DNA of 64,000 bases from Centroscyllium fabricii (Eukaryota), in contig JBNRSN020000007.1 of the NCBI GenBank assembly GCA_051313645.2, positions 49,600,001-49,664,000 on the forward strand, read 5' to 3'. The notes beneath the pieces were generated by a model. That model worked only from the letters and a program-made list of their open reading frames with translations. It did not search any database and had not been told where the DNA came from. This document shows, piece by piece, positions 11,311-60,065 of this stretch (position 1 is its first letter; every line of letters starts with the position of its first letter). Position numbers and translations under genes: made by a program.

Positions 11311-12124
11311 CAGGTTGAAATTCATTCGTTCAACACCCGAAAAACCGGCAGCTTCAGTCGCTCGGCACAGATTTTCCCGACTGCCCGGCGCATGCGCAGA
11401 CAATTCAAAATGGCCACCGTCGGGGCTGGGCTTCTCTTTCACCTAACATATACTCACTGGATCGCGGCTTAGTGACCACCCCGATGCCGATGGTGAATCC
11501 CAGGCCCAGAAGATGAGCTGTTGTGTCAGCCGCCTTTCGCAGGATGCGATACAGGCAATGCTCGGTGCCCAGCACTGCCGGAGGCTCCTGCCTGGCTGCG
11601 TGCTGACGTCACCGCGTTCCGCAGCTGGCGTGCGGTGGCATCACGTGAGCCGGGCTTGAGCCGTGCATTGGGCCTCAGGCCCGCTGAAGCCGTGCAGGCC
11701 ATTGCGTGCTGACGTCACCGCGTTCCGAAGCTGGCGTGCGGTGGCGTCACGTGAGCTGGGCTTGAGCCGCGCATCGGGCCTCAGGCCTGCTGAAGCCGTG
11801 CAGGCCGCTGCGTGCTGACGTCACCGCGTTCCGAAGTTGGCGTCACGTGAGCCGGGCTTGAGCCGCGCATTGGGCCTCAGGCCCGCTGGAGCCGTGCAAC
11901 CCGCTCCCTGACCCGCAGCAGAATCGAGTGCGAGTTCCACTCGACCCTTGGGCCAAAAATCAACTGCCAGGTACCGGCGAGTGCATGCGCAGAGCATTGA
12001 AAATTTTGCGTCAGCCATTTTGAATGTTCTGCGCATGCGCCGCCGTGACTTCAATAATTCGCCGTTTTCAACAATTCGGCAGGGTGCTGGTCCCGACCCT
12101 GCCGGATTGATGAACTTCAACCTG
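11311..12124 (-). mobile_element. pogo/Tigger-like MITE (family A, copy 1) with internal 106-bp tandem array
   Basis: TA-CAGGTTGAAATTCAT ... ATGAACTTCAACCTG-TA terminal inverted repeats with TA target duplication; arms shared with other copies. Confidence 0.88.
11598..11898. repeat. 106-bp GC-rich tandem repeat, about 3 units
   Basis: Units start at 11598, 11704 and 11810 (GCGTGCTGACGTCACCGCGTTCCG...); the third has an internal deletion. Confidence 0.93.
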
Positions 12125-13383
12125 TAGTACACTATCAAAAAAAACACATGTATGATCTAAACAGAATACTGCAAACTACACAATCGTTAGAGACTAACTG
12201 AATAAGATTACAAGTTGCCACAGCACAGAATTCCACTTTCCCTCAGTTTCAGTTAGAAAATGTAACTTTTTTTCCACCCAAGTACAAAATCAAATCAAAA
12301 ATAATTCTAGATATATAGTACTAAATAATAACTAATGGAAGGACTCAACGGTGCAACAGGCATTTCATCTCATCAATCTAGGTTCAAATTCAGGCTAGAC
12401 TGATGAGCTGAAAAGCTTCCTTATCTTCTGGCTACAATAATACTATATGAAGTGAGTTTTGCCCCAGTTCTTAATGGACATGGACTTGCATCACAAAAAT
12501 TGTTTCTAATTTGAAGTAAAAAGCCAATTTTGGACAGAAACCAGAGGACAGCTGGCATGTAAAATGGACAAAACAGCAATCGTGGCGAGGGGTACTTGAT
12601 TCTATATTTACTATGGTATACCTGACACACACTGGATGTGTTAAATGGGAAAGTGCTCATTTTCCAGTACTAACATTGTTCACCTTCAGCAGAGACTTCA
12701 ACAAGAACAAAGGAAAATACAAAACTCTGTTCAAGCTGTAGAAGCAGTGAAGAATTGTTGAATGTTCTTCTAAAATTGGAAAATTGAGCAGCAGCTTTTA
12801 AAACACTTTTTTAATTACTGTCCTCAAATTGAAAGAGGATAGTACTGAGAAAGGGAATACTGACCTTGTTGCAGGTACCCAGTTCCAGGATCGAGCACTC
12901 CCAGATAAGATATAATAGTTAGTGATGTAGATGAGGCTCTCTCTACTCTCCCCAACAACCTGCTTCACTGCCAAACATTTTTCAATGTGAAGCACAAACA
13001 CAGCAGTTGCATAAATGATTTACTTTACTGCACTCAAGTCTCAGCTAGGGTAGATACCTTCCCCATGGTGCTCCAAAGGGTAAATCATCTGGCATTCTCC
13101 AAGAAGTCCTTGCTTATCTCAACACAGAAAACATACATAAATTGCAAATTAAAGCATCCACTGCAAACTTTCAGTGGAAGCGAGAGTTAACATGCAACAC
13201 TCCATTGATAAACAGGAAATGTTACCATTTGGTTCAAACTCTCACCCCCACTCTTTTTTCACCCAGTGTCTATAACCTGGAATTAATTATGGTTCAATAA
13301 ATGTTTAGATTCTTGCCCAAATGTCATGACAAAAGGTTTGACCTTGGATAAAAAAATATATATATTTAATAGTTTTACACTGT

Positions 13384-15773
13384 TACTGCAAAGTCTACAT
13401 TTTGAAGCAATATGTAGGGTCACCTACAAGGGGGGGGGCGGTACTAGACCTAATACTTGGGAACGAAGACGGGCAGATAGAGGAGGTAACAGTGGGGGAG
13501 CACTTCGGGGATAGCGACCACAATTCAGTTAGTTTCAAGATTGTAATGGAGAAGGATAAAAATGGACATGGGGTAAAAGTACTAAACTGGGGGAAGGCGG
13601 ATTTCAATAAAATTAGGCGCGATGTAGCCGCAGTGGATTGGGGCCATCATCTCAGAGGAAGATCTGCATCAGAGCAGTGGGAGGCCTTCAGAGGGAAGGT
13701 CGGGAAGATACAGGAGGAACATGTTCCTGCAAAAATTAAGGGCGGGGGAGGTAAACAAAGGGAACCTTGGATGTCTAGAGATATATGTAAATTAATGAAG
13801 AAAAAAAGGGGGGCTTTCAATGAATATAAACGGCTAAAAACTGAGGAGGCGCTAGGGGAGTATAAGAAGTATAGGGGGGAATTAAAGAAGGAGATAAGAA
13901 AAGCCAGGAGGGGTCATGAGATTGCAATGGCCGGCAAAATCAAGGATAACCCTAAAGCATTTTACAGTTATATAAAAAACAAAAGGATCACGAGGGAAAG
14001 GGTGGGGCCCATTAAGGACGATAGCGGAAAGTTGTGCGTCGAGCCCGAGGCGGTGGGGGAGGTACTAAATGAATTTTTCTCTTCAGTATTCACAAGAGAG
14101 AGGGACGTAACCGACATCGTAATCGGACAGAGTGTAAGGGGGGTAATTGAGGATATTACCATTACAGGGGAAGAAGTACTAGAAATCTTGGGAAGCTTAA
14201 AGGTAGACAAATCACCAGGGCCGGACGCGATGTTCCTCAGGCTGCTGTTCGAGGCCAGGGAAGAGCTTGCGGGCCCCCTGTCTCAAATTTTCAGGTCCTC
14301 TCTCGCGTCAGGGGATGTACCTGAGGACTGGAGAACGGCTAATGTAGTACCCCTGTTTAAAAAGGGTAGTAGGGACAAACCGGGTAACTATAGGCCAATC
14401 AGTCTTACATCTGTAGTGGGGAAAGTAATGGAAAAAATTCTGAGGGACAAAATCAGTTTGCATTTGGAAAAGCAGGGTTTGATAAGGGATAGTCAGCATG
14501 GCTTCGTCAAAGGTAAGTCGTGCCTAACTAATCTGTTGGAATTCTTTGAAGAGGTAACAAAGAGGGTGGATGAAGGGAGTACTGTTGACGTGGTGTATAT
14601 GGACTTTAGCAAGGCTTTTGATAAAGTCCCACATAGGAGACTAATAACAAAGGTTAAAGCACATGGGATACAGGGCAACTTGGCACAGTGGATTCAAAAT
14701 TGGCTGGGGGATAGGAGACAAAGGGTAATGGTAGAGGGCTGCTTCTGTGACTGGAAACCAGTAACCAGTGGTGTCCCCCAAGGATCGGTTTTGGGACCCT
14801 TACTGTTTCTAGTATACATCAATGATTTGGACATGGGAGTAGGGGGTACGATCAGCAAATTTGCTGATGATACGAAAATTGGAAGGGTGGTAAATAACGA
14901 TGAAGATAGTAAAAGGCTTCAGGAAGATATAAATGTAATGGTTAGTTGGGCAGAAAAATGGCAAATGGAGTTCAACCCAGAGAAATGCGAGGTCATACAA
15001 TTCGGCAGACCAAATGGGGTAAGGGAATATACCATGAACAAAAAAACGTTAGGTAGGACCGAGGAACAGAGGGACCTTGGGGTACAGGTGCACAGCTCCC
15101 TGAAGGTTGCTGGACACGTAAACAAGGTGGTTAAGAAGGCATACGGAATTCTGGCCTTTATTAACCAGGGCATAGTATACAAAAGTAGGGAGGTAATGTT
15201 AAACTTGTATAACACGCTGGTGAGACCTCAGCTAGAGTAGTGTGTGCAATTCTGGTCACCGCACTTCAGGAAGGATGTGGTTGCCCTGGAGAGGGTGCAG
15301 AGAAGGTTTACCAGGATGATACCTGGTCTGGGGGACTTATGCTACGAGGAAAGGCTGGACAGGCTGGGGTTGTTTGCCTTGGAGAAGAGAAGATTGAGGG
15401 GTGACATGATTGAGGTGTACAGGATCATGAGAGGACACGATAGGGTGGATAAAGGGGCATTGTTTCCCTTGGTGGGAGAGTCAAATACTAGGGGACATAG
15501 ATTCAAGATTAGGGGGGGGGGAGGTAAGGAAAAATTTCTTTACTCAGAGGGTGGTGGAAGTGTGGAACTCCCTGCCTGTAAGGGTGGTGGAGGCAGAAAC
15601 CATCGCAACATTTAAAAAATATTTGGACCAGCACATGAAGGACCGTAACATACAGGGTTATGGGCCAGGTGCGGGCAAATGGGGTTAGTATAGTGAGGAG
15701 TTTCCTGGGCCGGTGCGGACTGGATGGGCCGAATGGCCTTTATCCGCACTGTAAAGTTTCTATGATTCTATGA
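13384..15773 (+). mobile_element. Relatively young 5'-truncated CR1 LINE (end of endonuclease, full RT, 3' tail)
   Basis: 612-codon open frame 13402-15240 with LDLILGN, SDH, NYRPISLTS, DFSKAFDKVPH, GVPQGSVLGP, KFADDT; ends in (TTCTATGA)2. Confidence 0.96.
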
Positions 15774-16429
15774 TGTTGGGAAAGAATCTAAAAAAAAAAA
15801 ATCATAAAATTTTGTTTACTCAGCAAGCACTGAAAATTGAGGAAAAAGGTTTTTTAACCAGATTGCAATATTTTCTGTATTCTTCCTAGATCAATAGTCA
15901 CTTATCACTCGAGCTGAAAGCTTGATGTTCTCTGATCAATAGTTCTGACCAGACAACCCAAAATTTCTATCCTCCTCAGATATGGAAGCTGTATCAGAGC
16001 AAAAACTCCCCATATCAAAGATTGCATTTATAAAACAGCATCTCAAACTTCTATAATTAACTGTATGATGCTCAAGATGGGGAGAAGTTCCTCGTGAACT
16101 GCTGAGTGCATCAACATTTGCAGGATGTCCTTCACACAGATAAATGTAAAACGACGCGTTCCTATATCACCAACAGCAATCTAATCTTGATTGTAGACCT
16201 CTGCAACTATGAAAGCTGGTTTACAAGTACAGTGATTATTTCAAGCTAGACAAGTCCAACAGTGCCATTCTCTTCATTAATCGAAAGCCACTTTGCACTA
16301 GCAATTGGATAATGTGATTGAAACTCATTTCATTATAATCTACTCTAACATGTTTGAAAACAAATGATACTCTTATTTCCATATAGTTGCTCTCCTTAAT
16401 TTAATCAAAAATCCAGAACACAACACCTA

Positions 16430-16760
16430 GGGGGAGAAATTCGGTAGCTTGCGCCAGCCGTTGGCGCCCTAAGAGGGCTGCTAATGGTGCGCAAGCATTG
16501 CCTGGCGTCTCCCACGATATTCAGTGGGACGCTGCCGGGTGAATTTGAGTCACGCCCGCTGACGTTCCGCCGGACGCTGCCCACGACAGCTTCAGGCTGT
16601 CGTACTTGCAGCAGGGTGGGGGGGGGGGGGGGGGGGGGGGGGGGAGCACTGCTTAAAGGGGAGGGTGCCGGGCAGTCATTTTTATTGCTGGCCGACTGCC
16701 AGCACCTTCCCCCTCTGCCGTCCCCGGCCTCCCCCGCTGCCTCTGCTCACTGAGCCCGCC
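16430..16760. mobile_element. Probable partial Harbinger-type MITE with a long G tract
   Basis: Starts GGGGGAGAAATTCGG, resembling the terminus at 44540; GC-rich island in an AT-rich intron; no second terminus found. Confidence 0.4.
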
Positions 16761-17645
16761 ACTTCCCTCCAGCCAGTTTGCTACTTTTGCTGCAGTATTT
16801 AGGATTAGTGCTGTTTTATTTAAAAAAAAGTAAAACCTTGCCACTAGACTAACAAATTACAACTCATTTATGTCAGGCAAGAGCTGGTTGAAGCTCACTT
16901 CATTTTCTTCCTTCATTCTCTTCCCCCATCTTCCACCAAGAAAAAACTGCCCGTGTTAACTGAAATTTGGTTTTTTTTTTAAGTCTGAAAATACAATGCA
17001 GCATTATCCAAGTTAGTGTCAAATATTTCCAACTGGTTGTGAAGTTACTCTGCACATCCTACATTCAGTGAACAACTGCATCTGGTATCTTCCCACGATT
17101 AGGTACTACACAGAGACTGATGCTAATTATCCTTGGTGCGAAATGAATAAACACTTCCACATGTGACAAAGTAACCTTGCTCGGTCATAAGTTTTCAAAC
17201 TATCGTTCCTTGACCCCCACGGTCAAATTTGTTGACCGACTAGCATGTTATATGTATTGCTGTACTCGGACATAAATGATTTCTGCAATGATGGTGCTGT
17301 TTTCCTTTAGATCGAGGACACTATCTTTTGCGTGCATCAATAGTTAGTGGGTCTTCCACAGAAAAAATTGAAAATCCATCAATAAAGGATTTAAGCATTT
17401 GTGACAACATATCGGTACAGTGCAAGAGGACCTTTTTATGCTCAAATCAAGATTATTTATCCCCATTACATGAAAAAAATTGAGTCTTTTGAAATTCATA
17501 ACCAAAGTGGTATAAATCATGAGTCACAAACATCTTAATTGACAGGCTATGTTTGGGACTTCCTTCAATTTAACAAGGATCTAAGCTACATCCAAACAAA
17601 TGATTGCATACATATACTGTACATCAAAAAACAATAATCCAATAC

Positions 17646-17846
17646 CTCTCTCAACTTTTCTCTCTCCTTTCCTCTATCTGCAATGCGTTTTCTTCTATCT
17701 TCCTCCTCTTTTAGGGCATTTTGAGTTTCTGTTCGTAAATTGCCATCTTTCAAAATCCTCCTAATCTTCTTCCGACCTTTTCCAGGGGATTTGGAGTCAT
17801 CATCATCGTCATCACTATCACCATTACCCTCATCTTCAGAATTGCT
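17646..17846 (-). CDS. ATRX: ATRX exon (exon 15 equivalent)
   Basis: 201 bp, phase 0-0; SNSEDEGNGDSDDDDDDSKSPGKGRKKIRRILKDGNLRTETQNALKEEEDRRKRIADRGKEREKLRE. Confidence 0.96.
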
Positions 17847-18066
17847 CTGCATAAACAAATTGAATGCGATCTAGTTTGATACACATTGAATTTTTTACAT
17901 ACATTTCAAACGAGAAAAGTATTAATTACACTATACAAAACATCATTGGGTATCGGAACTTACATTTTTGGTGTTCTCTTGCATTTTTTTAACTCTACAT
18001 TTTTTGGCTCTAATCGTGTATCACTCTCGTAGGTGAGTCACAGCTCACAAGCCTCATTACCTAGAT

Positions 18067-18488
18067 CAGTCATTCTCAAACTGGGGTCCGCAGGGACACT
18101 CCGGGGATCCGCAAAAAAAGCGCAGTCATTAGCAGCACGTTCGGAAACCAGTGAATGCCCACAGCTCTGTGCTGGCAAACGGGACCGTGCACACACAGCC
18201 GTACTGAAGTCCGCACTTATAACCGTCACCGCACTAGTTTCTAATCCTCACCGATATGCTGCTAATGATTGACATGTTCAACATCCAATCGCCGCACGAC
18301 ATCTTGTTAATGAACCATTCTGAGTACTTTCTGATTACGTGTGGCCAGTGTGTGCATGATCGGTGGGAAAAGAAAACATTTGGATATATATATTTTTTTT
18401 ATTTTTTTTAATTTTAGATGGGGGAAATCCTCGATTACTAATCGATTTGAAAAGTGGCCCTTCAATCAAAAATGTTTGAGGACCAGTT
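18067..18488. mobile_element. Degraded hAT/Charlie-like MITE
   Basis: CAGTCATTCTCAAACTGGGGTCCGC ... AAAATGTTTGAGGACCAGTT imperfect inverted termini; left flank ACCTAGAT resembles a Charlie target site. Confidence 0.55.
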
Positions 18489-18741
18489 CCAGTAATAGTG
18501 AACAGCAAACCCTATTACTTTAAGCTACCGGAATTATCTGGTTTTCTCTCCAGTCCTTGATAAATGACTAGAACATCACATCAGATTTGGTTTAAAGGTT
18601 TAAACTAATAAGTGATTACATTATTATTCACACAACTTTATATATTTACATGAGGAAAAGCCTCAACAAGAAAACCACAAAAGGTTTAAACTTTTATTTA
18701 ATCAGTTCTTTTTTGTATTTAACTGCAGGAGCTAATTATGG

Positions 18742-20490: not shown

Positions 20491-20839
20491 CGGAGTGCTA
20501 CATTGTCCTTGAAAAGATTTTGGTCTGTTCAATTCAGGCCTACTCAAATATCTCTACGCTGTTCACATTTTATATCCCTTGAATGGGTGCCAAGGCTGGC
20601 AAGAGTTTTGTAACGGCCAAATATAGGTGGTTGTCATATCTACAAGTGAAGCAATCACTAATTTTACTAAAGTGTGCACTGGTTCCCCTCCAAAGGCAAG
20701 GAAACAATGATAAAACTTGCAATATATGCATCGCATTACTGTGGGAAAACACAAATCTGAAAGTGCCTAAAATAAACCGACAGTCACCAGCCCAAAATAT
20801 GGAATGGTTTTGTGTCACAATTAGCATCTATGAAAATAC

Positions 20840-20936
20840 CTTTTCACTTGTCGAGTTTTCTTTAACTTTAATTCGTCGCCTTTTCTTTTTCTGTTGGTAG
20901 CTGCGTTGATTTTCCTCTGCCTCTTTCTTAGACGCT
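20840..20936 (-). CDS. ATRX: ATRX exon (exon 14 equivalent)
   Basis: 97 bp, phase 2-0; (R)ASKKEAEENQRSYQQKKKRRRIKVKENSTSEK. Confidence 0.94.
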
Positions 20937-21166
20937 CTGCACACAAATGTAAATTTACACACTTATCTTTGTTCAAACCTCCTAACCTTAGCTGCCCTGG
21001 AGTTACAACGGTAAATTTTGCGGCTAAGTGACAGTCATACTGTAGCTTTCTCTAGTGGGGAACCAGTGTCAGAATTAGTCAGATCCACAGGAGAACGTGA
21101 AGAAAGCAAGAGTTGGGGGGCATGGAACAGGCTCCTACCAGTACTATGCACGAATCATCTAGAGTA

Positions 21167-21685
21167 CAGGTTGCGCACCATTAATCCGCCACGGGCGGGA
21201 CCAGGCCCGTGCTGGGAAACAGAAAAAACCGGGAGAACGAGGTTGGACACTGCACATGCGCGCCATTCAAAATGGCCGCGCGCATGCGCACAACATTGGG
21301 ATTGGCTGGCGCGCGCATGCGCAGATCGGGCCCAGGTCCGCCTTCCCTCTCCATCGCCTTTCGGGTTGCTGCTGCCACCGAGCCGGACTCAGGCTGACAG
21401 CTGTTGCCTAGTGACTGTCCGCCTCAGTCACGGGGCTCAGCTGTGGAGAAAATAACCGGCGGCCGTATTGAATTATCTGCGCATGCGCTAACCGTCCGGC
21501 GACGCATGCGCAGATCATTCAAAACACCCGGCAGCCGTTTTGAATGATCTGCGCATGCGCAGATCATTCGCCGAAGCCACGATGGCGGCGGCCATCTTGC
21601 GCATGCGCAGTGCAGTCGGGGCAATTTGTGCCAGCAGACTGAAGCTGCCGGCTATTCGGGACACGGATTTTCGGTGCACAACCTG
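21167..21685 (+). mobile_element. pogo/Tigger-like MITE (family A, copy 2)
   Basis: TA-CAGGTTGCGCACCATTAATCCG ... CGGATTTTCGGTGCACAACCTG-TA; multiple GCGCATGCGC palindromes. Confidence 0.92.
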
Positions 21686-21699
21686 TACTGCGTTCATTT

Positions 21700-25355: not shown

Positions 25356-25452
25356 ACCACTAGGTGAGATCATTGACAAGAAATATTTGCAGATGCTGCA
25401 CAAAATTTTTTTAAAGGTGTATTTTGACAGTTTTAAAGAAAAGATCGTTTAC

Positions 25453-26812: not shown

Positions 26813-26998
26813 CAGGTTGAAGACCGTTAATCCGGTAACTTCAGTCGTCGGGCATAAATCGCGCCGACTGCCATGCGCATGCACAAAATGGCCGCTGCGA
26901 TCGACGCTTCGGCAAATGCTCTGCGCACGCGCCGCCGAACGCATGCGCAGATCATTCAAAATGACCACTGGAAGTTTTGAATGATCTGCGCATGCGCC
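26813..26998 (-). mobile_element. pogo/Tigger-like MITE (family A, copy 3; one arm only)
   Basis: CAGGTTGAAGACCGTTAATCCG followed by arm motifs (AAAATGGCCG, CGCATGCGCAGATCATTCAAAA); the other terminus is absent. Confidence 0.8.
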
Positions 26999-35980: not shown

Positions 35981-36180
35981 AGATGGGGAGATGCCGGTGT
36001 TGGACTGGGGAGGACAAATATAAGAAGTCACACAACACCAGGTTATAGTCCAACAGCTTTATTAGAAATCACAAGCTTTCGGAGTGCTGCTCCTTCCTCA
36101 GGTGAAGGACTTGTGAAAACTTGTGATTTCTAATAAAGCTGTTGGACTATAACCTGATGTTGTGTGACTTCTTATATTTT
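35981..36180. mobile_element. Penelope-like inverted pLTR pair
   Basis: 36016-36074 is repeated in inverted form at 36120-36179; the spacer holds a hammerhead core. Confidence 0.75.
36069..36105 (-). ncRNA. Minimal type I hammerhead ribozyme motif (Penelope-type)
   Basis: UCAC-CUGAGGA-A-GGAG-cagca-CUCC-GAAA-GC-UU-GUGA: stem I UCAC/GUGA, conserved cores, stem II, palindromic AGCU stem III, CUU cleavage triplet. Confidence 0.65.
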
Positions 36181-42239: not shown

Positions 42240-42347
42240 CTGTAAAGACACAAAACGAAATTTGAGTTATGAGTCCCTACAAAATGATTGTTCATTTATT
42301 AGTGCTTTCATTAACTTTTATAATACTTCTAAGCAGTCATAATTGTA

Positions 42348-42995
42348 CAGGTTGAGCACCATTAATCCGGCACGGGCGGGACCAGGCCCGTGCCAGGAAA
42401 GTGAAAATCCCGAATGATTGAAACTTCGGCAAGCACATGCGCAGACCATTTAAAATGGCAGCCGCGAAAGGCCAGCGGCCATTTGGAGTGGTCTGCGCAT
42501 GCGCTTATCGTTCGGTAAGGCCCAGCTCAGGGAGGCTCGGTAAGGCCCGGCCCGGCTCGGGGAGCCCCAGCCCGGGAAGGCCTGATAAGGCTTGGACCGG
42601 CTCAGTAAGTCGAGGCGAGGCCCGGCTCGGGAAGCCACAGCCCAGCTTGGTAAGGCTCGGGAAGGCTTGGTACGGCGAGGCAGGGCCTGGCTCAGGAAGC
42701 CCCGGCCCGGCTCGGTAAGGAGAGGCTTGGCTCGGGAAGCCACGGCCCGGCTCGGTAAAGCGAGGCTCGGCCCGGGATCGTTCGGCAGCGAATGCGCAGA
42801 TCATTAAAAACTTTGCGCCGGCCAGTGTGAACTATCTGCGCATGCGCTCACCATTCGGCGGCGCATGCGCAGATCATTCACTGAAACATCAATCGTGGTG
42901 GCCATTTTGCGCATGCGCAGGGTAGTTGGGGCAATTTGTTCCGGAAGACTGAAGCTGCCGGCTTATCGGCTAACGGATTAATGGTGCACAACCTG
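42348..42995 (+). mobile_element. pogo/Tigger-like MITE (family A, copy 4) with degenerate GGCCCGGCTCGG(T/G)AA array
   Basis: TA-CAGGTTGAGCACCATTAATCCG ... CGGATTAATGGTGCACAACCTG-TA. Confidence 0.92.
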
Positions 42996-43217: not shown

Positions 43218-43882
43218 CAGGTTGTGCACCGAAAATCCGTGTCCCGAAAAGCCGGCAGCTTCAGTCTGCCGGCACAAATTGCCCCAACTGCACTGCGCAT
43301 GCGCAAGATGGCAGCCGCCATCGTGGCTTCGGCGAATGATCTGCGCATGCGCCGATCATTCAAAACGGCTGCCGGGTGTTTTGAATGATCTGCGCATGCG
43401 TCGCCTGACGGCCAGCGCATGCGCAGATAATTCAATACGGCCGCCGGTTATTTTCTCGACAGCTGAGCCCCGTGACTGAGGCGGACAGTCACTAGGCAAC
43501 AGCTGTCAGCCTGAGTCCGGCTCGGCGGCAGCAGCAGCAGCAACCCGAAAGGCGATGGAGGGGGAAGGCGGACCTACTGGGCCCGACCCGCGCCCGCACA
43601 ACCCTCCTTCCCCCCCCCTGCAAGATCGGCCTTTCACTGCTGCCCGACAGCCCTAAAAGGCAAAAGGAACGCCACACAAGCCTGAGCCCCTCAAAAAACT
43701 TTGCGGCGGCCATTATTGGTTGATCTGCGCATGCGCGCGCCAGCCAACCCCAATGTTGTGCGCATGCGCGCGGCCATTTTGAATGGTGCGCATGCGCAGT
43801 GTCCAACTTCGTTCTCCCGGTTTTTTCAGTTTCCCGGCACGGGCCTGGTCCCGCCCGTGGCGGATTAATTGTGCACAACCTG
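43218..43882 (-). mobile_element. pogo/Tigger-like MITE (family A, copy 5)
   Basis: Near reverse complement of copy 2 with about 145 extra internal bases; TA on both flanks. Confidence 0.92.
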
Positions 43883-45882: not shown

Positions 45883-47151
45883 AGAATATTACATAAATAG
45901 GAGCAGGAATTTGGCCCTTTGCGTCTGCTTTGCCATTTAATAAGATCATGGCTGATCTTCTACCTCATTTCACTTTCCTGCACTATCCCCATATCCCTCG
46001 ATTCCCTTAATATTCAAAATTCGATCGATCTCTGTCTTGAACGACAGAGCCTCCACAGCCCTCTGGGGTAGAGAATTACAAAGATTCACCACCCTCTGAG
46101 TAAAGACATTTCTCCTCATCTCAGTCCTAAATGGCCGACCCCTCATTCTGAGACTGTGACCCCTGCTTCTAGACTCCCCAGCCAGGGGAAACATTCTCTC
46201 TGCAACTATCCGGTCAAGCCCTGTAAGAAACTTGTATGTTTCAATGAGATCACCTCACCTTGTTCTAAACTCCAGAGAATATAGGCCTAGTCTAATCAAT
46301 AATTGCAGTAAGATGTCTTTACTCCTGTACTCAAATCCTCTTGTATTAAAGGCCAACATATCATTTACTTTCCTAATTGCTTGCTGTACCTGCAGGTTAA
46401 CTTTCAGTGATTCGTGTACAAGGACACCCAGGTCCCTCTGAACACCAACATTTCACAATCTTTCACCATTTAAAAAATACTCTGCTTTTCTATTTTTCCT
46501 ACCAAAGTGGATAACCTCCCATTTCTCCACATTATATTCCATTTGCCATGTTCTTGCCCACTCGCTTAGCCTGTCTATATCCCCTTGAAGCCTCCTCAGA
46601 ACTTACATTCCCACCCAGTTTTATACCATCAGCAAACTTGGATATACAGGTTGAGCCCCGTTATACCGGCACAGGCGGGACTAGGCCCACACCGGTAGAG
46701 CGAAAAAACCGGTAGAATGAAGTCGGCCAGTGCGCATCATTCAAAATGGCCGCGCACATGCGCACAACATTGGAAATGGCCGCTGAACGTCCTTGCTGTC
46801 TCAGCTGCGGTTTCTGCCTCCCGTTGATGACGGTCTGCAGGCTGCTCCGGGGAACCGCACGCTTCACCACGGCGGGCGCTCGGGACCCACACATTCAAAA
46901 CGCGGCGCGTCCTGACGTCATGGAAGGCCCGGCTCGTCCGGCGGCCATTTTGAATGATCTGCGCATGTGCAGATCATTCGCCGAAGCATCGATCGCGGCG
47001 GCCATTTTGCTCATGCGCGGGGCAGTCGGGCGATTTATACCGGACGACTGAAGTTGCCGGCGTTTTGGGTAATGGATTAACGGTGCTCAACCTGTATTAC
47101 ATTCGGTCTCCTCATCCAAATCATTGACATAGATTGTGAATAGCTGAGGCC
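45883..47151 (-). mobile_element. Nested CR1 fragment, itself interrupted by a MITE
   Basis: Minus-strand KFADD-like region, MRRNVFTQRVVNL and CR1 3' UTR; CATTTA present at both junctions. Confidence 0.8.
46647..47094 (+). mobile_element. pogo/Tigger-like MITE (family A, copy 6)
   Basis: TA-CAGGTTGAGCCCCGTTATACCG ... GGATTAACGGTGCTCAACCTG-TA, inserted into CR1 RT sequence. Confidence 0.9.
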
Positions 47152-49405: not shown

Positions 49406-49473
49406 ATACCATTCTTTGAAAACATAAAACTACACAAATGCAAGAACAATAATCACAATAAAAGTACACCAAC

Positions 49474-52436
49474 CTGATGACTGGCAAAAACCTGATCGTG
49501 CAGCAATCTCAATATTTTCCGTGATAGGCTTTATCTTTTGTTCATCACTGCTTCCTTCTCCGGGCAAATCCTGCTTGTCCTCTTCTTCAGCTTCACCTCC
49601 ATCTGATGAAGATGAAGAGCTTCGCTTTTTTTCCACAGCTCGTTTTTTCCGTTTTAATTTTGCCGCTTTTTCCTTAGCAGATTTTGTGGCAACTTTCTCG
49701 TCATCTTTGGATGAACCATCCCCATCCTCCTCGGTTCCGTGTTTTTTTGCTTTCTTTGATGATGATTTTTTAGCTGTATTGATTTTACTCAAGTTCTTGA
49801 TTTCCTTTTCTAGGTCAGAGTCGTAGTTGGAAGAGTCTGAACGATGTTGTCTTTTTTTGTTAGCAACACTAATCCTTTTACTGGTTCTTTTTCTCTCCTT
49901 TCCACCAAAATCTGAACTCGAGGATGAGCACTTCCTTTTCCGTTTAAGACCATCAGTTTTACTTGCCTGTGGCATTCGCTTACGCAGACCAAACAGACTT
50001 GTCCTTTTAATAATTTTTTGGGATGAATCACTATCTTTGTTATCAGCATCAGATGAACTTTCATGCTTCACTGCTGCCTTTTTCAATACCTCAGGGATCT
50101 CATCAGAGTCAGAGGTAGTTTGCACACCAGCGTTGTGTAGTGTATCTGACTTATCAGGATCAGATTCTTGCACCTCAGATTTGATATTTTTGTTGGAGGT
50201 TTTTGATCGGCCAGTCTTGACCTTTCCTGAAGAGTCTACTTTCTCTTTGTCTTTAGTTTTCTTTTTCGATTTCCTACGTCTTTTACCACCATCACCAGCA
50301 CTATCAGTGTCGTCTTCAGATCTGGAGTTCACAATTCCTGCCCCACCAGGGCGCCTCAGAGGTGTCGTTTTTATGCGAGGTGAACGCCTAGTATCAATGT
50401 CCTCTGACAGAACTGATGCATCATTTGCAGGATCATTTTCACGGTCATCTTCAATTACTTGATCAGATTTTTTCTTCCTCTTTTTCGAAATTTTTACATT
50501 GCCCTTTTGAGGTCTTTCCACACTTTTTTTGCCTTTAATTGAATCCTCTGCAGCACTGATGCCTTCTCCATCCCCTGCATCATCATGGCTACCATCCCCA
50601 GATCCCACATCATCGCCGTCACCTCCAAACCCCGCATCGTCGTCGGCACTCTCTGCATCACGCGCCGCTGCATGACCTTTGTTTTCATCACTCCCATTGT
50701 CCACTGCGGCATCACCATCGCTCCCATTATCCACTGCGGCATCACCATCGCTCCCATTATCCACTGCGGCGTCACCATCGCTCCCATTATCCACTGCGGC
50801 GCCACCATCGCTCCCATTATCCACTGCGGCATCACCATCCCTCCCATTATCCACTGCGGCATCACCATCACTCCCATTATCTACTGCGGCATCACCATCA
50901 CTCCCATTATCCACTGATGCTTCAGCATCATCTTCTCCAGCCACCGCTTCAGCAGCACCATCCCCAGCCACCGCTTCAGCATCATCTTCTCCAGCCACCG
51001 CTTCAGCAGCACCATCCCCAGCCACCGCTTCAGCATCATCTTCTCCAGCCACCGCTTCAGCAGCATCATCTCCAGCCACTGCTTCCGCATCACCTCGTTT
51101 ACCCTTCTTGAACAGTTTTTTCTTGCATGCACCACGTGCAGTTTTCTTACACCTCTTGAGTGAACCTGGGGTCAATTTTATTGAAAGTTCACACTTCACT
51201 GAAGATTTTACACTGGAATCAGAGTCCAGCTCTGAGGATTTTCCAGAATTCTGACTTTCAGCAGGTGCCTTAGCTGACGCATTATCTAGCACAGTGCTGT
51301 TACTTGTAGAATTCTCCACTGCATCCAGATCTGGTAGCAACGAGTCAGTTGCCTCAAACAGACCTTCAGTCAGTGAAGAAACAGATCCAATATCCAGAGC
51401 TTCATCTAAACTGTAAAGCATTGTTGTGTCTACCATCTCAGATTCTAGTTCAATGCCTGCACTTTCACAAACGGCATCGGCTTCTTCATTTTTGACCAAC
51501 ACATCATTTGAGGCAGAGTCAGTTTCAGCGCTGACCATTTTTGAATCCAGCATTAATTTATCAGTTTGCTCTACTGACATGATTTGTTGCTCTTCAGCAG
51601 CCTTGTCTGGTTCACTTGAAACTCCTGACACTTCCACCTGATCAGATTGATCTTCAGCTGAAACAGAGTTTTCTGCAACTGTCTGATCAGGTAATAAATA
51701 ATTCTCATTGTTGGCGGAATCCTGTACCTCAACTTTGTTAACACACTCTTGTAATGATTCAGTAGGTTTATTTTGTTCCATTTCCAAGTCTCGAGTCTCT
51801 TTATCTAAAATTTCTTCTACTGCAAGATGGACTTTCTTTAGATCTCCGAGCACAGACTTAAAAGCTTTCAACTGTCTCATGTTTACATTAGGTTCAGACT
51901 CATTTAAGTCTTTTTGTTTTAAAAAATTAATGAAACTAATATTAAAGTTGGCTGTTGTATCAATAAGTTTGCGAGCCTTCTTCAGAAGTTCTTTTGGTAC
52001 TTTTAATGCTTTATAAGAATATGTAAAATTTCCAGAGCTTGGAGAAAGAGCTTTCAATGAACCTGCATCTTTTTCCTGTCCGTTACAATCTTTATTGGAA
52101 ATTTTTTTGGAAGCACTTTTATACTCATGATCTACAGACTTGTCACTGTCATGAGGACCTGGAGATTTGCATTTATCAGTGTCCAATTTAAATTTATCGA
52201 AGTCTTTCCTCTTTCGGTTTTGTTGCCACAGCTGATCAAGACATTCAAACACACTGTCACAAGCAATGACCAAGTCCAGCAAAGGCTCTGGATTACACAC
52301 ATAGCAGTACCACTTTTTGTTTTCATCCATAATATTGGATAGCTCCTTCCTTCCCAGGTTTCGCAAGATGCAGCTTTTGCAAAATGCATTGTGACAAAAA
52401 TCACAACAAATCAAATTTCCACCTTCAGCACACCAT
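49474..52436 (-). CDS. ATRX: ATRX large exon (exon 9 equivalent): ADD PHD finger, HP1-binding-like motif, long charged region
   Basis: 2963 bp, phase 2-1; WCAEGGNLICCDFCHNAFCKSCILRNLGRKEL...WYCYVC; ELSIKLTP; RRSPRIKTTPLRR; ends GFCQSS(G). Confidence 0.98.
50687..50914 (-). repeat. Coding 30-bp minisatellite (VDNGSDGDAA) x7.6
   Basis: Plus-strand unit CCACTGCGGCATCACCATCGCTCCCATTAT with few substitutions. Confidence 0.97.
50927..51088 (-). repeat. Coding 27-bp minisatellite (AEAVAGxxx) x6 with 54-bp higher-order period
   Basis: Alternating AEAVAGD(D/G)A and AEAVAGEDD units. Confidence 0.96.
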
Positions 52437-52575
52437 CTGCAATATAGAAGAAAAAAAGTCGAATAAAAAAAAACAGGCTGCACATCTGGAAAGTAATAAC
52501 CTTGACGCTTGAAATAAAGATCGTTTCAGCAGAGGACCAAAGCTAACAATTGCAACAGCCATGATCTTATTGATA

Positions 52576-52748
52576 ATGTGGAGGTGCCGGTGTTGGACTG
52601 GGGTGGACAAATGCAAGAAGTCACACAACACCAGGTTATAGTCCCATCAGTTTTATTTAAAATCACAAGCTTTCGGAGCATCTCCGAAAGCTTGTGATTT
52701 AAAATAAAACTGATGGGACTATAACCTGGTGTTGTGTGACTTCTTGCA
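52576..52748. mobile_element. Penelope-like inverted pLTR forming a near-perfect palindrome
   Basis: Arms 52612-52678 and 52682-52748 (67 bp each, one mismatch) with a 3-nt loop. Confidence 0.85.
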
Positions 52749-55595
52749 ATTGCAACAGGGACAGCAGTGTGGCTGGGGATCATACCCATGTCGTCAACAA
52801 GCAGCTTCAGCACACAGCACCCGTTAACCTTGTTTTTCTTGAAGCTATTTAACAATAAGCATTTAGATACGGAAGCCCTATTAAAAACTTCTCAATCTCT
52901 CTTCTTACTTTAATTGTTGGTGACAAGGGTGGGGTACCAAGATACAGTTGTGCCAGCATCCAGCTCGCTGTCGATCAGTGCCATCATGTCACTGATATAA
53001 CTCAGCCATGCACAGCCTGAAAACATATTGATATACAGGTTCCGCTTGTGGAGCAATTGACAAATCCGGCGCAAATTGCGTCCATTTCGAAAAATGTCCC
53101 TGGTGATTCCGCTCAAATTCATTAGCATATCAAACGCTAAAATCTGCCATGAACCAGCGTAATCGTGCATGCACTTTAAAACGCAATTTTCCTTCATATA
53201 TTTAAAAGTGGTAACTTGGTGACATTTGATTAAAACAGCTGAAAACAGGTTCATCACAAAAAAATACGCATTTTCAGTCAGTGTCAATCCACCAGCTGAG
53301 TAACCCGATTTTAAATTACTGAAATATAAAACTATTTCCTAGTTATATTGGGGTACATTAGTCAGTTTCTTAGTAAATTAAAACAAAAATCACATTTCAA
53401 AGCTTTTAAAACCTACCTTCCAGCGTCCTTGCGCCCAAAAGATCCAGCTTCATTTTTTAAAGCCTCCCTGAAGGCCTGCAAACGAGCGTAATTAGTGGAA
53501 ATTCCCCAGGGTGATTAATTCACCCTGGGAGCATGGCCTATTTTGTGGCTTGGACCTGCTTCCAAATCTTTTTTTTTTTTTAAACTAGTGCAAAAGATCG
53601 CAGAAACTCAGGTTGCACTGAACGGAAATGGTGTTAAAATCCTGCAATCTTTTGCCCCTGGTTACTGTGATTTCAACCAATATACCAGTCAAGCTCAAAA
53701 CAGGGATTAAAACTGGCTTCATAAATTGTCTTTCAACATTTTACTGGTTCAGAACTTAAGGTTGATTTTAATCTAGCTGGAATGACTAGCAGGATTCATG
53801 CTCTCTCCCTTTCTCACACACCCCTCCCCTCAACAATTTTATTCTCCCCTCTCCTGAAAATACTGACCTCTTTTGGGAATTGGTTTCTAAGGTCCCAGCA
53901 ACCCTGGGCACACACAAGTGGCCATCCCTCAGGTTTGAACTTAGAGAGTTCAGCAACAGCAGATTTGACCATGAGGGCATCACAGCCAAACCCCAATCCA
54001 GTCACAAGTACAGTTTCCAGCAGAGGGGCAATGGATAGCAATTAGTGGTAAAAAAAAAAAGATTAATTTTCCCCCCATCTTGGCTACATCCCCAAAAGAT
54101 GGGGGATCAAACTGGAGATTTTCTGATCTGTATGGCTTAGAACGGCACTACACCCACAAGGCATCAGGTTGAGCTCTTTAATAAAAAGGGAACAAATTAA
54201 AATTCCACTCTGGAACTTGTTAGCTTCAGACATACAGCCCTGTTGAAATTTGTTTAGGTCTCAAGTTTTAGTACACTTGATTGGTACAGCATTATGAAAG
54301 GTCAAATAGTGTATCATCAATTTTCAAAAACACAAATTCAGCTAATACTATGGATCTGGAACTGTGCACCTCTGAACACATCAGATCATCTCCTGCCAAA
54401 CCCATGTTTCGTTTCAGATTCTACATCTGTGCTGTAGTTAATAACTCACCATTTGACCCCCCCCCCCCCCCCCCCAACCGCAATTGAGGGGTCCTCAGGG
54501 CTTTTCCCTCACCCTATTTTGGTTCATATTAATGACCTGCTCTACTAATCACTGAATCCCAACCAGTCTCTTGTTGATTTCACACCATATTCAACATTTA
54601 AGCCCACATAGCCTCAGCGCACACATCAATTCCTCTTGCTGCACAACTGCTGAGCCAATATCTCAACCGCTAATGATCTTTGAATGGACAATGAAAACCT
54701 TGTTTCTTTCCATTTTTAAAGACAGACATTTCTTCACTTTGCAGCTAATATCTTGCTTTTGATGACTCGAACAGCAGCCCGACATTTTCCACAATCCTGG
54801 TCTATCGCCTCTGACCCCAAAATGAACTCCCATGAGCTTGCCATTTCTAAAGCTTCTTCCAAGTTCAACTTTCTTTTTCAATGACAAGCCCTCGTTAACC
54901 TAACAAAGTTAAAACCCACCCAAGATTTGAAAACTGCTCCCATATCTAGAGGGGATACCAAAAAATGTTTGCTGTCTGATGAGCAATCCATCGGCTAATT
55001 GCAGACTCCAACTTTTAACTTTTGCAATCATTCTGCCTCCCCTCATTTTACAAATATGACTGCACCGGGGGGAGTGCTTGTCTGAACTTTCCTCCCTTCT
55101 TGCATACACGCAATTCTACACGACATTCTCCTCCTCGCACCCTCACAAAGCTGAAATTAAGATGCATCACTCCATTTCCTGCTCTAACTCTTTCACCAGG
55201 ATCTACAACTGCCTCACTCTTTCCTCCCTTTAAAGTCCAAGGATTGCATCACCCAAGTGTTCAACGTATTACACGTGAACCATGTGCAGCCTGAGCCCTA
55301 GCTATCTGACCCGTAAAATGTTCAGGCAACTCAGTCCGACTTGAGCTTGTATTTATTTGTGCTGTTTAAATTTTGTCAGGTCTAGAGATGCAAAAAGGGT
55401 CATTTTTGGCACTGTTAGTGAACCAGTTGAGTTTGACAACACTTTTACTGATACCAGCTTTTTATTTCCAATTTTTTTTTAACTGAATTAATATAATAGA
55501 AGACCAAGAAGCCACCCAATCCTGTCAGTTGAAATATTAGGCATGTATATAGGAGTGAAATGCGAATTCAAGGGACAAGAAAGTAGACTACCCAC

Positions 55596-55663
55596 CTGCA
55601 TTGCTCATCCATATCATCTGCATCTCGGCTAATGTCATCACTCATATAGTACTTATGGCAATT
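55596..55663 (-). CDS. ATRX: ATRX exon (exon 8 equivalent), ADD domain
   Basis: 68 bp, phase 0-2; NCHKYYMSDDISRDADDMDEQC(R). Confidence 0.97.
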
Positions 55664-57161
55664 CTGTAAAATAGAAGAAATACATTGGGAATTAATAAGG
55701 GTGCATTCAATTTGTTTCTGTAATGTACACAAATATAAACCATATCTGTAATATATTAAAATCCTTAAGTTGGTAATGCAGCAATATCTCAAGTATATTA
55801 AAATCAACGTGCAACATTCTGTGATTCTGTAACCATAACACCAGTTGTTCTTACTTGCTCCAAAGAGGCATGTTACAACAAGCACCTCTAAAAGGCATAC
55901 CATTTTCACAGATTTAACAGTGAACAAGGCATGGGGAGATTCATTAAAATATATCTACACAATATATTCAAAAAAAACAGTACATTCATTGCATGCTCCA
56001 TTTTACAGACCAACAACCATCTCCGATGTGGAAATGTCATCATTTCCCGTCATACTTCCAGGTGTCCTCTCAATAGGATTTTCCATTATTAATTGTGCAG
56101 CCATTAGCAGTCATATTCCAGGTCATGCCAGCAGGTCTACCTCCAGAGTTTCCGAAGCTCTGGATCCCCATGGCACAATCAACATTATACAGCTTCAGAG
56201 CCTCCTTAGCCCCTAGATGCAGCCAACACTGCAACCTCCCTCAGAAATACAGCTAGCTCCTACCCACAAGCCTCTCCTTGCAATTAAATAGTTGACCTGC
56301 AACTACAGGTTTTAACCTGTCTTTTAAGTCATAAATAATAATGATTCAGCCTCCTGTCCCAGTCAGATACAATTACCCTGACTGGGCCTTTGGATCCCTT
56401 GCTGCTGAATAATTGTTTTCCTGCATCTTTTAATTATCAACGTTGCTTTTCAGTTTTTTAAATTTAACCCCACCACCCCTTCATTCACCCTCCCCCCCCC
56501 CACCATACTGTAGTGGTGTCACTGTTTACAGCATAGTGGCTGCTGCTACTTAGCTCCAGCCCTGCTCTTGTACTCTGGGTACCTTCAAATCATCCTCCTT
56601 TCCACCCAAACCCCCTCATGCTCAGTTTGGCAGTTAACAATTCAATTCAATTTGCTTTATTGGCATGACAAGATGCATCTTATGTTACCAAAGCACAGAA
56701 AAAGGACATATACAATTGAACATACAAACACATATCTAGACATAGTGTATGGACAAATATACCCATACACACATATACATACTACTCAATCTTTAATTGG
56801 ATTCAATGGTCACTGGTTGTCCCTCTGCATATGGCAAGCTGTGACGTAGTTTGCCGCTAATTTTATACAGTTCCTCTGTTCCCCCCAATAGATATGGGAG
56901 TTTTTGGTGGTCGTTCAAATTTTTGAATTCAGGGCATGTTTTTATGAATTTTGGGTAGAAATTCCCCCTTATGTCCTGATAGTTTTCACAAGTTGAGAGG
57001 AAATGCAGCTCTGTCTCCACCACTCCCAGACTGCAGTGACAGCACAGCCTTTCCTCTCTGGGCAGCCAGGTCTGTGTCTGCCTTTTTCGATGGCTAGGTT
57101 ATGCTCACTAAGTCTGTTCATTGTCAGGGTTTTTCCTCAGTTTGCTATCTTTCACCATGGT

Positions 57162-58844
57162 CAGGTAACCATTTCATCTGCTCTTCACTCCGCTTTGACC
57201 CACTTGGAAGGCAAAGACACCTACGTCAGAATGCTGTTCATCGATTACAGCTCAGCATTCAATACCATTGAATGGGGCGGCACGGTGGCATAGTGGTTAG
57301 CACTGTTGCCTTACAGCACTAGAGACCCGGGTTCAAATCCAGCCTCGGGTACTATCTGTGTGGAGTTTGCACATTCTCCCCGTGTCTGCGTGGGTTTCCT
57401 CCGGGTGCTCCGGTTTCCTCCCACAGTCCAAAGATGTGCGGGTTAGGTTGATTGGCCATGATAAATTGACCCTTCGTTAGGGGGATTAAATATGTGGGGT
57501 TACGGGGATAGGGTGGGATGTGTGTCAGTACAGGTTCAATAGGGATCGAGGGATATGGGGACAACGCAGGGACAGGGTTTGGATGATCAGCCATGATCTC
57601 ATTGAATGGCGGAGCAGGCTCGAAGGGCCGAATGGCCTACTCCTGCTCCTATCTTCTATGTTTCTATGTTTCTACCATGATCCCGACCAAGCTTGCAACC
57701 AAACTCCATGCCCTAGGCCTCAACACCACCCTCTGTAATTGGACCCTGGACTCCCTGACGAACAGACCCCAATCTGTTACGTTAGGTAACCTCACCTCCA
57801 CCACCTTAATCCTGAGCACCGGGGCTCCACAAGGGTGCGTGTTGAGCCCTGTCCTCTTCACCCATGATTGTGTGCCTATCCACGACTCCAATATCATCAA
57901 GGTCGCGGATGACAGCACAGTGATAGGACTGATCACTAACAATGACGATTCAGCCTATAGAGAAAAGGTCCAACACCTTGTGGCGTGGAGCGCTGACAAC
58001 AACCTGTCCCTCAACACCAAGACGACCAAGGAGCTCTTTGTAGACTTCAGGAAGTCCAAAGACATCAGACACACCCCGATCTACATCAATGGGGCTGAGT
58101 TGGAAAGGGTCTGCAGCTTCAAGTTCCTGGGCGTCCACATTACGGAGGACTTCTCATTGTCCCTCAACTTATCCTCCTTGGTGAAGAAAGCTCAGCAGCG
58201 CCTATACCTCCTGCAGAGGCTGAAGAAAGTAAACTTATCATCCCAGCTTCTCTCCAACTGCTACTGCTGCACAATAGAAGGCATCCTAACAAACTGCATC
58301 ACGGTGTGGTATGGCAGCTGCTCCACCTCCGACAGGAAGGCCTTTCAGAGAGTAGTCAAAACTGCCCAATACATCGGCACCCAGCTACCTGCTATTCAAG
58401 ACATCTACGAGAAACGTTGCCTGCGGAAATCTCTTCAGCGTCATCAGGGACCCCACCCACCCCAGCCACAGACTGTTTGCCCCCCTGCCATCTAGGAGGC
58501 GCTACAGATGTATTTGTGCCCGGACGACCAGGCTCAGGAACAGCTTCTTCCCTAGGGCTGTTATCCAGCTGAACTCACTCAACACCAAATCTGTCTACCA
58601 TCGGCACCTCCACCCGCACTTCCTGCATTAAAAGCCCATTTGCCCCCCCCCAGCACTTGCTCATCTACTCTTTGAAATGCTATTTGCACTCGATTCATTT
58701 ATCTATTTATTTATGATTTATCCATAACTCTCTATAATTTATAACTTAATGTCTGCTATGTCATGTCCTGGGAGCTTGTAAGCTCATTTTTCGTTGCACT
58801 GTGATTATAGACTGTGCAATGACAATAAAATTGAATTGAATTGA
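57162..58844 (+). mobile_element. Rex1/Babar LINE 3' portion
   Basis: [50 protein letters not shown]; (TTGAA)n tail; ATGGT duplicated at the flanks. Confidence 0.9.
57274..57672 (+). mobile_element. HE1-like V-SINE nested in Rex1
   Basis: A/B boxes, V-domain, CR1 tail; TACCAT on both sides. Confidence 0.92.
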
Positions 58845-59001
58845 ATGGTGTATGGTCCGTTTAGGGCCAAATAGCAACCTAGTTTGTTTTGGGTTTTTGT
58901 CGTTTCTGTCCAATATGACAAATATTTTTCTCTTTGTTTAGTAATAATTGTGTTGGGTCAAATTCTCTGTTAGGATGTCACTGGCCTGGGGCTGGTTGTT
59001 A

Positions 59002-60065
59002 CAGGTTGAGCACCGTTAATCCGGCACGGGCGGGACCAGGCCCGTGCCGGGAAATGGAAAAAACCGGGAGAACGAGTTTGGACACTGCGCATGCGCACCA
59101 GTCACAATGTCAGCGCGCATGCGCGCAACATTGGCATTGGCTAGCGCGCGCATGCGCAGATTGTCCAATATTGGCCGCCGCGAAGTTTTTTGATGGGATC
59201 AGGCTTTTGTGGCGTTCCGTTTAGGTTTTAGGGCTGTCGGGCAGCAGTGAAAGGCCGGTCTTGCGGGGGGAGGGAGGAGGGTGGCGTGGCGCGGCGCGGG
59301 GGGAGGAAAGGCGGGGGGGCGGAGAGAAGGCACGGGTCCCGCGGGGGGGGGGGGGGGGGGGGGGGGAGGAGAAGGCACGGGTCCGGGGGGGGGGGGGGGG
59401 GGGGGGGGAGAAGGCACGGGTCCGGTGGGGGGAGAGGGCACGGGTCCGGGGGGGGGGGGGGGGGGGGAAGAGAGGGCACGGGTCCGGGGGGGGGGGGGGG
59501 GGGGGGGAGAGAGAGAAGGCACGGGTCCGGGGTTAAGGAGGAGGAAGGCGCGGGTCCGGGGGGGCAATTTATCCAATCCCGTTTTGCTCTGTAAGAGGTC
59601 ACACGGCGCCAGGCTGTGGTCCAACGGTTTTAGTTGGGGTCACGGGCTTTCGGAGCGCCGCTTCCCCGTCAGGTGATCGGGGAGCGGCGCTCCGAAGGCC
59701 CGTGTTTTCGAGTGGGACTTTTGGACTACAGCCTGGTGCTGTGTGGCTTCTTACAATTGTCCATCCCAGTCCAACACCAGCACCTCCACATCATGGCTTC
59801 AATTACAGTTATCGATAAAATAACCGGCGGCCGTATTGAATTATCTGCGCATGCGCTAACCTTCCGGCGACGCATGCGCAGATCATTCAAAACACCCGCA
59901 GCTGTTTTGAATGATCTGCGCATGCGCTCGGCGCATGCGCAGATCGTTCGTTGAAGCCACGATGTCGGCTGCCATTTTGCGCATGCGCAGTGCAGTCGGG
60001 GCAATTTGTGCCGGCAGACTGAAGCTGCCGGCTATTCGGTTACCGGATTAACGGTGCTCAACCTG
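59002..60065 (+). mobile_element. pogo/Tigger-like MITE (family A, copy 7) with G-tract VNTR and a Penelope fragment inside
   Basis: Perfect 23-bp TIR CAGGTTGAGCACCGTTAATCCGG with TA duplication. Confidence 0.94.
59264..59565 (+). repeat. G-rich VNTR (GGCACGGGTCC-Gn), G-quadruplex-prone
   Basis: About seven GGC(A/G)CGGGTCC anchors separated by G runs, several longer than 20 nt. Confidence 0.93.

Follow-up and report, generated by a model that had tools for sequence, protein, structure and literature searches.

Miniature inverted-repeat transposable elements with captured cargo and growing tandem repeats in the genome of Centroscyllium fabricii

The stretch analysed here, 64,000 nucleotides of the 7.2-Gb genome of Centroscyllium fabricii (G000:C1266:49600001-49664000, hereafter the window, to which plain position numbers refer), carries seven elements of one MITE family (miniature inverted-repeat transposable elements). 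The core of one of them is the promoter and first exon of the host gene CYB561D2, taken up between the element's ends and multiplied to thousands of copies. We consider it highly probable that the best overall explanation of the family is a population of MITEs that are mobilised in trans, capture and amplify cargo, breed tandem repeats and occasionally exchange arms.

The family consists of MITEs, being short and non-coding, with terminal inverted repeats (TIRs), a target duplication and a high copy number. A first-pass annotation of the window had described seven elements with shared TIRs and arms, with TA duplications at the six complete copies, and all were found where it placed them. Each complete copy has the form CAGGTTG...CAACCTG with TA on both flanks. 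In copies 1 and 6, the left-end TIR has a degenerate AATCCG part. Every element has two unlike arms, which we name A and B. Copies 2, 4, 6 and 7 share one orientation, and copies 1, 3 and 5 have the opposite one. The elements are as follows.

11311 to 12124, minus strand: copy 1, complete MITE, TIR type GAAGTTC, TA on both sides.
21167 to 21685, plus strand: copy 2, of copy-5 type minus about 130 nt internally, itself a multi-copy subfamily.
26813 to 26998, minus strand: copy 3, a lone arm with a TIR of type GAAGACC and with TG rather than TA on its outer flank.
42348 to 42995, plus strand: copy 4, complete MITE with a degenerate 20/40-bp array at about 42510-42785 (Tandem Repeats Finder, TRF).
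43218 to 43882, minus strand: copy 5, complete MITE of a subfamily of about 660-675 bp (94-97% identity), with a GC-rich core.
46647 to 47094, plus strand: copy 6, complete MITE.
59002 to 60065, plus strand: copy 7, complete MITE of the youngest subfamily, its cargo about 98.8% identical between pairs.

The TIR type of copy 3 also occurs in a complete coreless element elsewhere (L296:1784-2247).

Two exact patterns of TA plus TIR gave 90,789 and 11,838 genome matches (102,627 ends together), compared to none for the reversed control patterns, which excludes chance. In 800 kb of sequence taken regardless of the element, 15 of 55 ends fit the exact patterns; the 700 kb of this sample far from the window held 29 ends. 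From arithmetic on the pattern counts and on the unbiased sample, we estimate a family size of roughly 150,000-190,000 elements. The neighbourhood of the window is about sixfold denser, with 11 paired elements per 100 kb compared to 12 per 700 kb elsewhere.

Each core in the window marks a multi-copy subfamily. The genome was searched five times, using the core of copy 1, 4, 6 or 7 or copy 5 in full, and 40 loci were scored each time. Both TIRs were present at 140 of the 150 loci fetched (30, 28, 27, 28 and 27), about eight of the 140 being paired with a neighbouring TIR. The core of copy 6, previously taken to be unique, is one such case, with all 40 scored matches full length and 2,428 first-look candidates. 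A second set of 89 elements was chosen without regard to core, from random stretches, bystanders, TIR-selected loci and the window. Of these, 71 have TA on both sides; lengths in the family range from 279 to 1877 bp. Clustering of their cores, with arm modules masked, gave nine multi-member cores, seven single cores and 18 almost coreless elements. No transposase sequence was present in any of 183 elements. The core clustering and this lack of transposase exclude a single master. We regard as extremely improbable the explanation that all copies descend by deletion from one master or from an autonomous Tigger element: copy 2 does derive from copy 5 by deletion, the element at L186 likewise from the copy-7 type, and MITE ends resemble Tigger ends, but 16 unrelated cores and 18 coreless elements stand beside 183 elements without a transposase remnant, two cores appear to be host gene starts, and the parent of the CYB561D2 core refutes such descent. 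The first-pass description of differing middles on shared arms thus holds against the single-master alternative, except that copies 2, 5 and 7 form one lineage.

Copy 1 is a case of capture and contains the following.

11419 to 11978, minus strand: captured CYB561D2 segment, comprising promoter and 5' untranslated region (5'UTR), first coding exon and about 36 nt of intron 1.
11458 to 11572, minus strand: remnant of the CYB561D2 first coding exon, with the start codon mutated, three codons deleted and a GT donor at 11457.
11596 to 11898, no strand assigned: 106-bp array, 3.0 copies (TRF), the captured CYB561D2 promoter tandemly triplicated, with one unit in the parent.

The core encodes about 39 residues that end at the GT donor. 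A full phmmer search with this peptide returned 15 matches (E up to 0.001), bamboo shark being among the CYB561D2 matches; three of six matches looked up are named CYB561D2 or a synonym, and another cluster bears a generic ferrireductase name. Support for CYB561D2 came from full phmmer alone and not from a word-index search, Pfam, PDB or Atlas. Exons 3 (C1156:5703056) and 2 (C1156:5716434) each occur once in the genome, in contrast to 7,803 first-look candidates for exon 1. On the minus strand at G000:C1156:5726003-5726377, about 9.6 kb upstream of exon 2, is the parent exon 1; a locus on C712 considered as the gene proved to be a paralogue (42% compared to 60%). The parent segment is 375 nt long and holds 212 nt of upstream sequence, the coding exon and about 36 nt of intron. 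All ten MITE copies aligned to it have the same two breakpoints and 88.5-91.4% identity, and the left capture junction has a 4-nt overlap, GCCG. No MITE arms were found in the 10 kb fetched at the parent, where only 22 nt upstream of the breakpoint were readable. The core of copy 1 is a captured CYB561D2 promoter and first exon whose parent has no MITE arms in the stretch fetched, which fits a Pack-TIR.

Amplification followed capture. A 22-mer from the copy 1 core has 4,314 exact genome matches, and copies with CYB561D2 cargo are independent insertions with their own target duplications. Polarised by the parent, the lineage runs from copies with GAGCACC or GAACACC TIRs, which are nearest to the gene, through one intermediate to GAAGTTC copies that lack three codons. 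The promoter unit contains CACGTG and TGACGTCA, which we take to be an E-box and a CRE. It is single in the parent and in all six copies with an old TIR, and among 53 copies with the new TIR it occurs once in 12, twice in 30, three times in ten and four times in one, half of the loci having been picked with the three-unit core. The 106-bp array is therefore a host promoter duplicated inside a transposon. With dN/dS about 0.8 and stops in 6 of 54 exon copies, the cargo appears to decay neutrally. Separately, core matches about 48-51 kb apart on one strand of G000:C1:226693001-227081767 suggest a large tandem segmental array.

Copy 6 carries a second gene start, by protein match.

46786 to 46870, minus strand: putative captured CENPW start of about 28 codons, with GTG for ATG and a frameshift; upstream sequence extends to about 46935.

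Its 28-aa peptide matches CENP-W in PDB (E 3.5e-4) and in Pfam (E 0.0018, under the curated cut-off), and by this protein match the core is probably a captured CENPW start. Several points weigh against capture as we read it. Sequence upstream of the CYB561D2 breakpoint is short; the CENPW parent was not located in the genome, leaving that capture to the protein match; and the core of copy 5 had no protein match and chance-level Pfam results only. Other GC-rich cores with splice-donor-like or promoter-like motifs are candidate gene-start captures (L184:2454-3044, L224:8932-9524, L211:5627-6146, L167:2377-3076, L367:728-1522 and L304:722-1525).

Copies 2, 5 and 7 illustrate how one lineage has changed its interior. 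The deletion in copy 2 is common to seven other fetched copies. Copies 7 and 5 have about 300 nt on the left and 260 nt on the right in common, at 86-87% identity. In the copy 7 lineage a pair of terminal repeats in inverted orientation, preceded by a 24-nt flank and followed by a short one, takes the place of about 115 nt of the copy-5 core. Two features of copy 7 concern us here.

59264 to 59564, plus strand: G-tract variable number tandem repeat (VNTR; detected by TRF), seven units in copy 7 and 1-32 in sister copies.
59590 to 59795, plus strand: two Penelope-type terminal repeats in inverted orientation, both arms hypermutated A>G on the plus strand; the pair's own target duplication is intact in an older variant.

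The terminal repeat also flanks an RVT_1 reverse-transcriptase frame at L233, and its motifs are those that we take to be of Penelope. No locus with GIY-YIG was linked to the terminal repeat. The cargo bears a likeness to what we take to be the hammerhead core motif, and an Rfam search found no families and no hammerhead. An older variant that keeps the target duplication has 805 exact matches and a younger variant that has lost 5 nt of it has 931 (together at least 1,736), with cargo identities of 98.7% and 98.8%, respectively (60 pairs each). Free insertions elsewhere, unconnected with the MITEs, have the same hairpin layout and their own target duplications. Among pattern-selected hairpin insertions (L414-L422 and L383), an AT-rich flank motif is common, and several have 10-13-bp target duplications and 5' truncation near one point. 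Free, unedited remnants of Penelope-type terminal repeats also lie in the window at 776-899, 35982-36179 and 52573-52752, two of them palindromic.

The hairpin of copy 7 is hypermutated on one strand. We compared the window cargo with 116 well-supported columns of 71 genomic arms, setting aside two rows that belong to a relative of copy 7 (L373). On the plus strand, A>G changes occur at 20 of 48 A compared to T>C at 5 of 47 T, and all 14 transitions private to one hairpin arm are A>G. The remaining 69 genomic arms reach at most 8%, and the MITE parts of copy 7 have no such bias. Clustered one-strand A>G changes confined to the duplex are what ADAR hyperediting of a hairpin RNA predicts, and such editing is the likely cause. 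Some findings weigh against it. Five transitions are common to both arms (four T>C and one A>G in the repeat sense), for which a single round of editing is insufficient, and G precedes an edited A at 1 of 18 sites compared to 5 of 27, which is not significant (p 0.38). Genome pattern searches found no unedited donor and no empty site for the cargo, as patterns without the upstream G and the empty-site pattern each gave no matches. Unedited-junction patterns gave 1 and 9 matches, all unrelated insertions. These same points would favour a G-rich Penelope piece that arose by GC-biased conversion or came from a divergent donor subfamily, without RNA editing. We think this quite unlikely, as GC-biased conversion would produce as much T>C as A>G and would also leave its mark on the MITE arms, where no bias is seen, whereas the private transitions are exclusively A>G, on one strand and in both arms. 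Ten natural insertions have unedited sequence in the same layout; these were picked with unedited patterns and are evidence on layout only. ADAR editing remains our preferred account of the hairpin. The first-pass annotation had noticed neither this hypermutation nor the gene starts in two of the window's cores.

Tandem repeats arise within the elements. Copy 5 has one G-tract segment, the single-unit seed of the copy 7 VNTR. In the older copy-7 variant the VNTR measures 64-213 nt (median 130; 30 of 30 loci), compared to 109-520 nt (median 281; 9 of 10 loci) in the younger variant (p 0.003), and similarity-selected loci of the younger variant have 146-1114 nt in 1-32 units (27 of 30 loci). Unit variants differ among copies with near-identical flanks, although homopolymer lengths may include sequencing error. 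By eye, the copy 4 array and arrays of 25, 36 and 50 bp start at a similar short seed beside arm A, and an array of 25-29-bp units extends about 1.6 kb. TRF detected an array in 50 of the 89 elements not chosen by core, some of which are duplicated arm modules, and unrelated units of about 20, 25, 31-32, 36, 44, 50, 60, 106 and 133 bp occur in the family. This supports the proposal, made in the first-pass annotation, that repeats are bred inside the elements and dispersed by them. The same proposal held that finished arrays are swapped among elements, for which there is no support since each array traces to a seed in the lineage that carries it and arms for the most part go with their cores.

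Arms are inherited mainly with their cores. Arm trees were built from subterminal sequence with the TIR removed (64 rows, at most five per group, 77-90 columns), leaving out eight truncated single elements and two nested outer elements. Core labels required 28 and 29 changes on these trees, near the minimum of 27 and far from the approximately 52 obtained with shuffled labels, indicating that inheritance of arms with cores is mainly vertical. The left- and right-arm trees do conflict, with approximately unbiased (AU) test p values of 0.004, 0.0005, 1.6e-6 and 0.056, and none of 199 column permutations attained the observed two-tree likelihood, from which we conclude that arms have occasionally been exchanged. 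The most clear-cut case is independent of any tree: the single CYB561D2 capture is found with two left-arm types, each of which also occurs on unrelated cores, and the CYB561D2 core and the 25-bp core each occur with both TIR types. We interpret these patterns as occasional exchange, among subfamilies, of one arm against an arm plus core. Against exchange it can be said that the AU groups were picked after the trees had been seen, that 77-90 columns are few and one of four tests is not significant, and that covariation within hairpins inflates the column permutation. A CYB561D2-type MITE nested at a TA in another family MITE (L330:790-2163) is a possible route of exchange.

Purely vertical succession, in which tree conflict stems from convergence on the preferred ends of the active transposase and from hairpin self-correction, would account for how closely arms track cores, for the graded TIR change and intermediate copy in the CYB561D2 lineage, and for the partly compensatory changes among subfamilies in the 8-bp stem of arm A. 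We consider this unlikely: the conflicts were measured on subterminal sequence without the TIR, the most parent-like cores carry a derived left arm and less parent-like ones a copy-4-like arm, and in coreless elements a left arm of copy-1 type is joined to a long right arm absent from copy-1 elements.

The elements appear to be of pogo/Tigger type, as the first-pass annotation had suggested, based on the TA duplication, short TIRs that start with CAG and an end layout in common with two autonomous families of this genome. Tigger family 1 is 2.38 kb long with the TIR CAGGAAACTC... and copies about 90% alike; family 2 is 2.2-2.3 kb long with the TIR CAGGTTCACAATCC..., and both carry DDE_1, HTH_Tnp_Tc5 and CENP-B_N domains. 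Arm A aligns with the 3' ends of both families and arm B with the 5' end of family 1. The similarity is moderate: CCGG motifs and a GGGACC block are spaced alike, and the first 12 TIR bases differ. Two results weigh against mobilisation by these families. Following scoring of the best 150 of 1,714 and the best 150 of 1,017 candidates, no transposase with the MITE's own TIR, as the first-pass annotation had envisaged, was present in 57 transposase loci examined, so that mobilisation in trans is inferred only. Copies of the dominant Tigger family are about 90% alike compared to about 99% in the copy 7 subfamily. Unpaired TIR matches considered as long autonomous elements proved to be interrupted MITEs or a 1.6-kb array. 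Long Tigger open frames occur at L261:1586-3622 (679 aa) and L264:1910-3766 (619 aa); L279 matches L264 at 97.9%, flanks included, and the two are probably a segmental duplicate. Family MITEs are inserted in or beside the Tigger coding part at L160, L167 and L424.

We propose that a pogo/Tigger transposase would bind the CCGG-containing ends and move the non-coding MITEs in trans. New interiors arise by three routes. Foreign DNA such as that of CYB561D2 and CENPW is captured between the arms, probably by template switching during break repair; a Penelope hairpin insertion is captured, its RNA probably having been edited by ADAR before reverse transcription; and a GC-rich seed is amplified tandemly in place, probably by slippage or unequal repair. 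A founder with a new core would then be amplified to thousands, with array length continuing to change at each site, and arm exchange would probably occur by template switching at shared GCGCATGCGC modules.

The cargo itself is most likely a neutral passenger. Alternatively, promoter-like cargo and GC-rich arrays may be favoured because the element then stays in chromatin that is open and unmethylated and transposes at a higher rate, a view that we find possible but doubtful. Both identified gene cargoes are 5' ends, and the promoter part is duplicated in the derived subfamily. The CpG observed/expected ratio is 0.93-1.52 within elements compared to 0.39 outside, and all 25 window matches of the GCGCATGCGC motif, as well as 10 of 16 matches of AAATGGCC, lie within elements. 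Motifs in the arms, for example at 21167-21330, resemble what we take to be NRF1 (GCGCATGCGC) and YY1 (AAATGGCC) sites. However, young age would also explain the high CpG, coreless and deletion subfamilies are likewise abundant, and the exon copies are near-neutral. A more far-reaching and rather doubtful prediction is that of a vertebrate MITE lineage evolving as a population of modules that recombine, with selection favouring captured housekeeping promoters and G-rich arrays because they raise transposition. If true, the family would have seeded promoter decoys and hypervariable minisatellites by the tens of thousands and amplified RNA edits as inherited DNA.

The series found here, from 1 to 32 units in copies about 99% identical and from 1 to 4 promoter units with the parent gene as outgroup, record the birth of minisatellites and allow direct tests of models for how repeats originate and how template switching captures DNA. 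An RNA that was likely edited by ADAR has been multiplied as DNA. Copies of the family can also confuse read mapping, and the annotation of genes and promoters, for CYB561D2 and CENPW.

A large exon in the window (49430-52525, minus strand) has a start that matches the ATRX ADD domain (E 3e-43), suggesting that the elements of the window probably lie in ATRX introns. This ATRX-like exon contains in-frame 27/54-bp and 30-bp tandem repeats (50686-51092) that code for acidic Ala/Gly/Asp-rich units, and the terminal-repeat remnant at 52573-52752 lies just upstream of it. Decayed reverse-transcriptase/endonuclease frames of long interspersed elements are present at 13342-15240, 57587-58495 and 4670-5356.

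A literature search that had subscription papers and Dfam/Repbase outside its scope turned up neither this family nor a MITE containing an edited Penelope element. Pack-TIRs of animals, described as rare and almost without exception single-copy, with 370 reported in 100 genomes and four (1.4%) multicopy (Tan et al. 2021, PMC8277862), are similar in that TIR ends surround host DNA, the cargo is GC-rich and spreads by transposition, a template-switch model applies, and a 5'UTR can be captured, as with CAPSL in hAT-N8_XT. Their multicopy example has three derived copies (PMC8277862), compared to at least 4,314 copies of one capture here, and captures in the present family recur in one lineage, with cargo then tandemly amplified. 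Xenopus T2-MITE Xmix/Xstir and miDNA4 (PMC6004289, PMC9659126) are likewise long-lived MITEs with many subfamilies and an internal segment that is amplified and dispersed; Xmix belongs to the TTAA/Kolobok type and has a single repeat family (PMC6004289), whereas the elements here are of TA/pogo type with many units, some from captured host DNA. MER6/MER6A is a Tc1/mariner-type MITE that also amplifies a retroelement piece, but it is one composite family with a V-SINE domain, and its abstract mentions neither hyperediting nor gene capture (PMC6887750). Tigger elements of the pogo group share the TA duplication and short TIRs, 18-23 bp in Chondrichthyes (PMC9219625). Compared to their autonomous relatives of 2.2-2.4 kb in this genome, the MITEs are non-coding and differ in the first 12 TIR bases. 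Donax DTC84 is a MITE with a central tandem array, a single family by its description (PMC3879986), and coral CMITEs show the reverse pattern, with the interior conserved (PMC2872659). Each process seen here thus has a precedent; the scale and combination in a vertebrate are unusual, and cargo copying is far above that reported for such animal elements.

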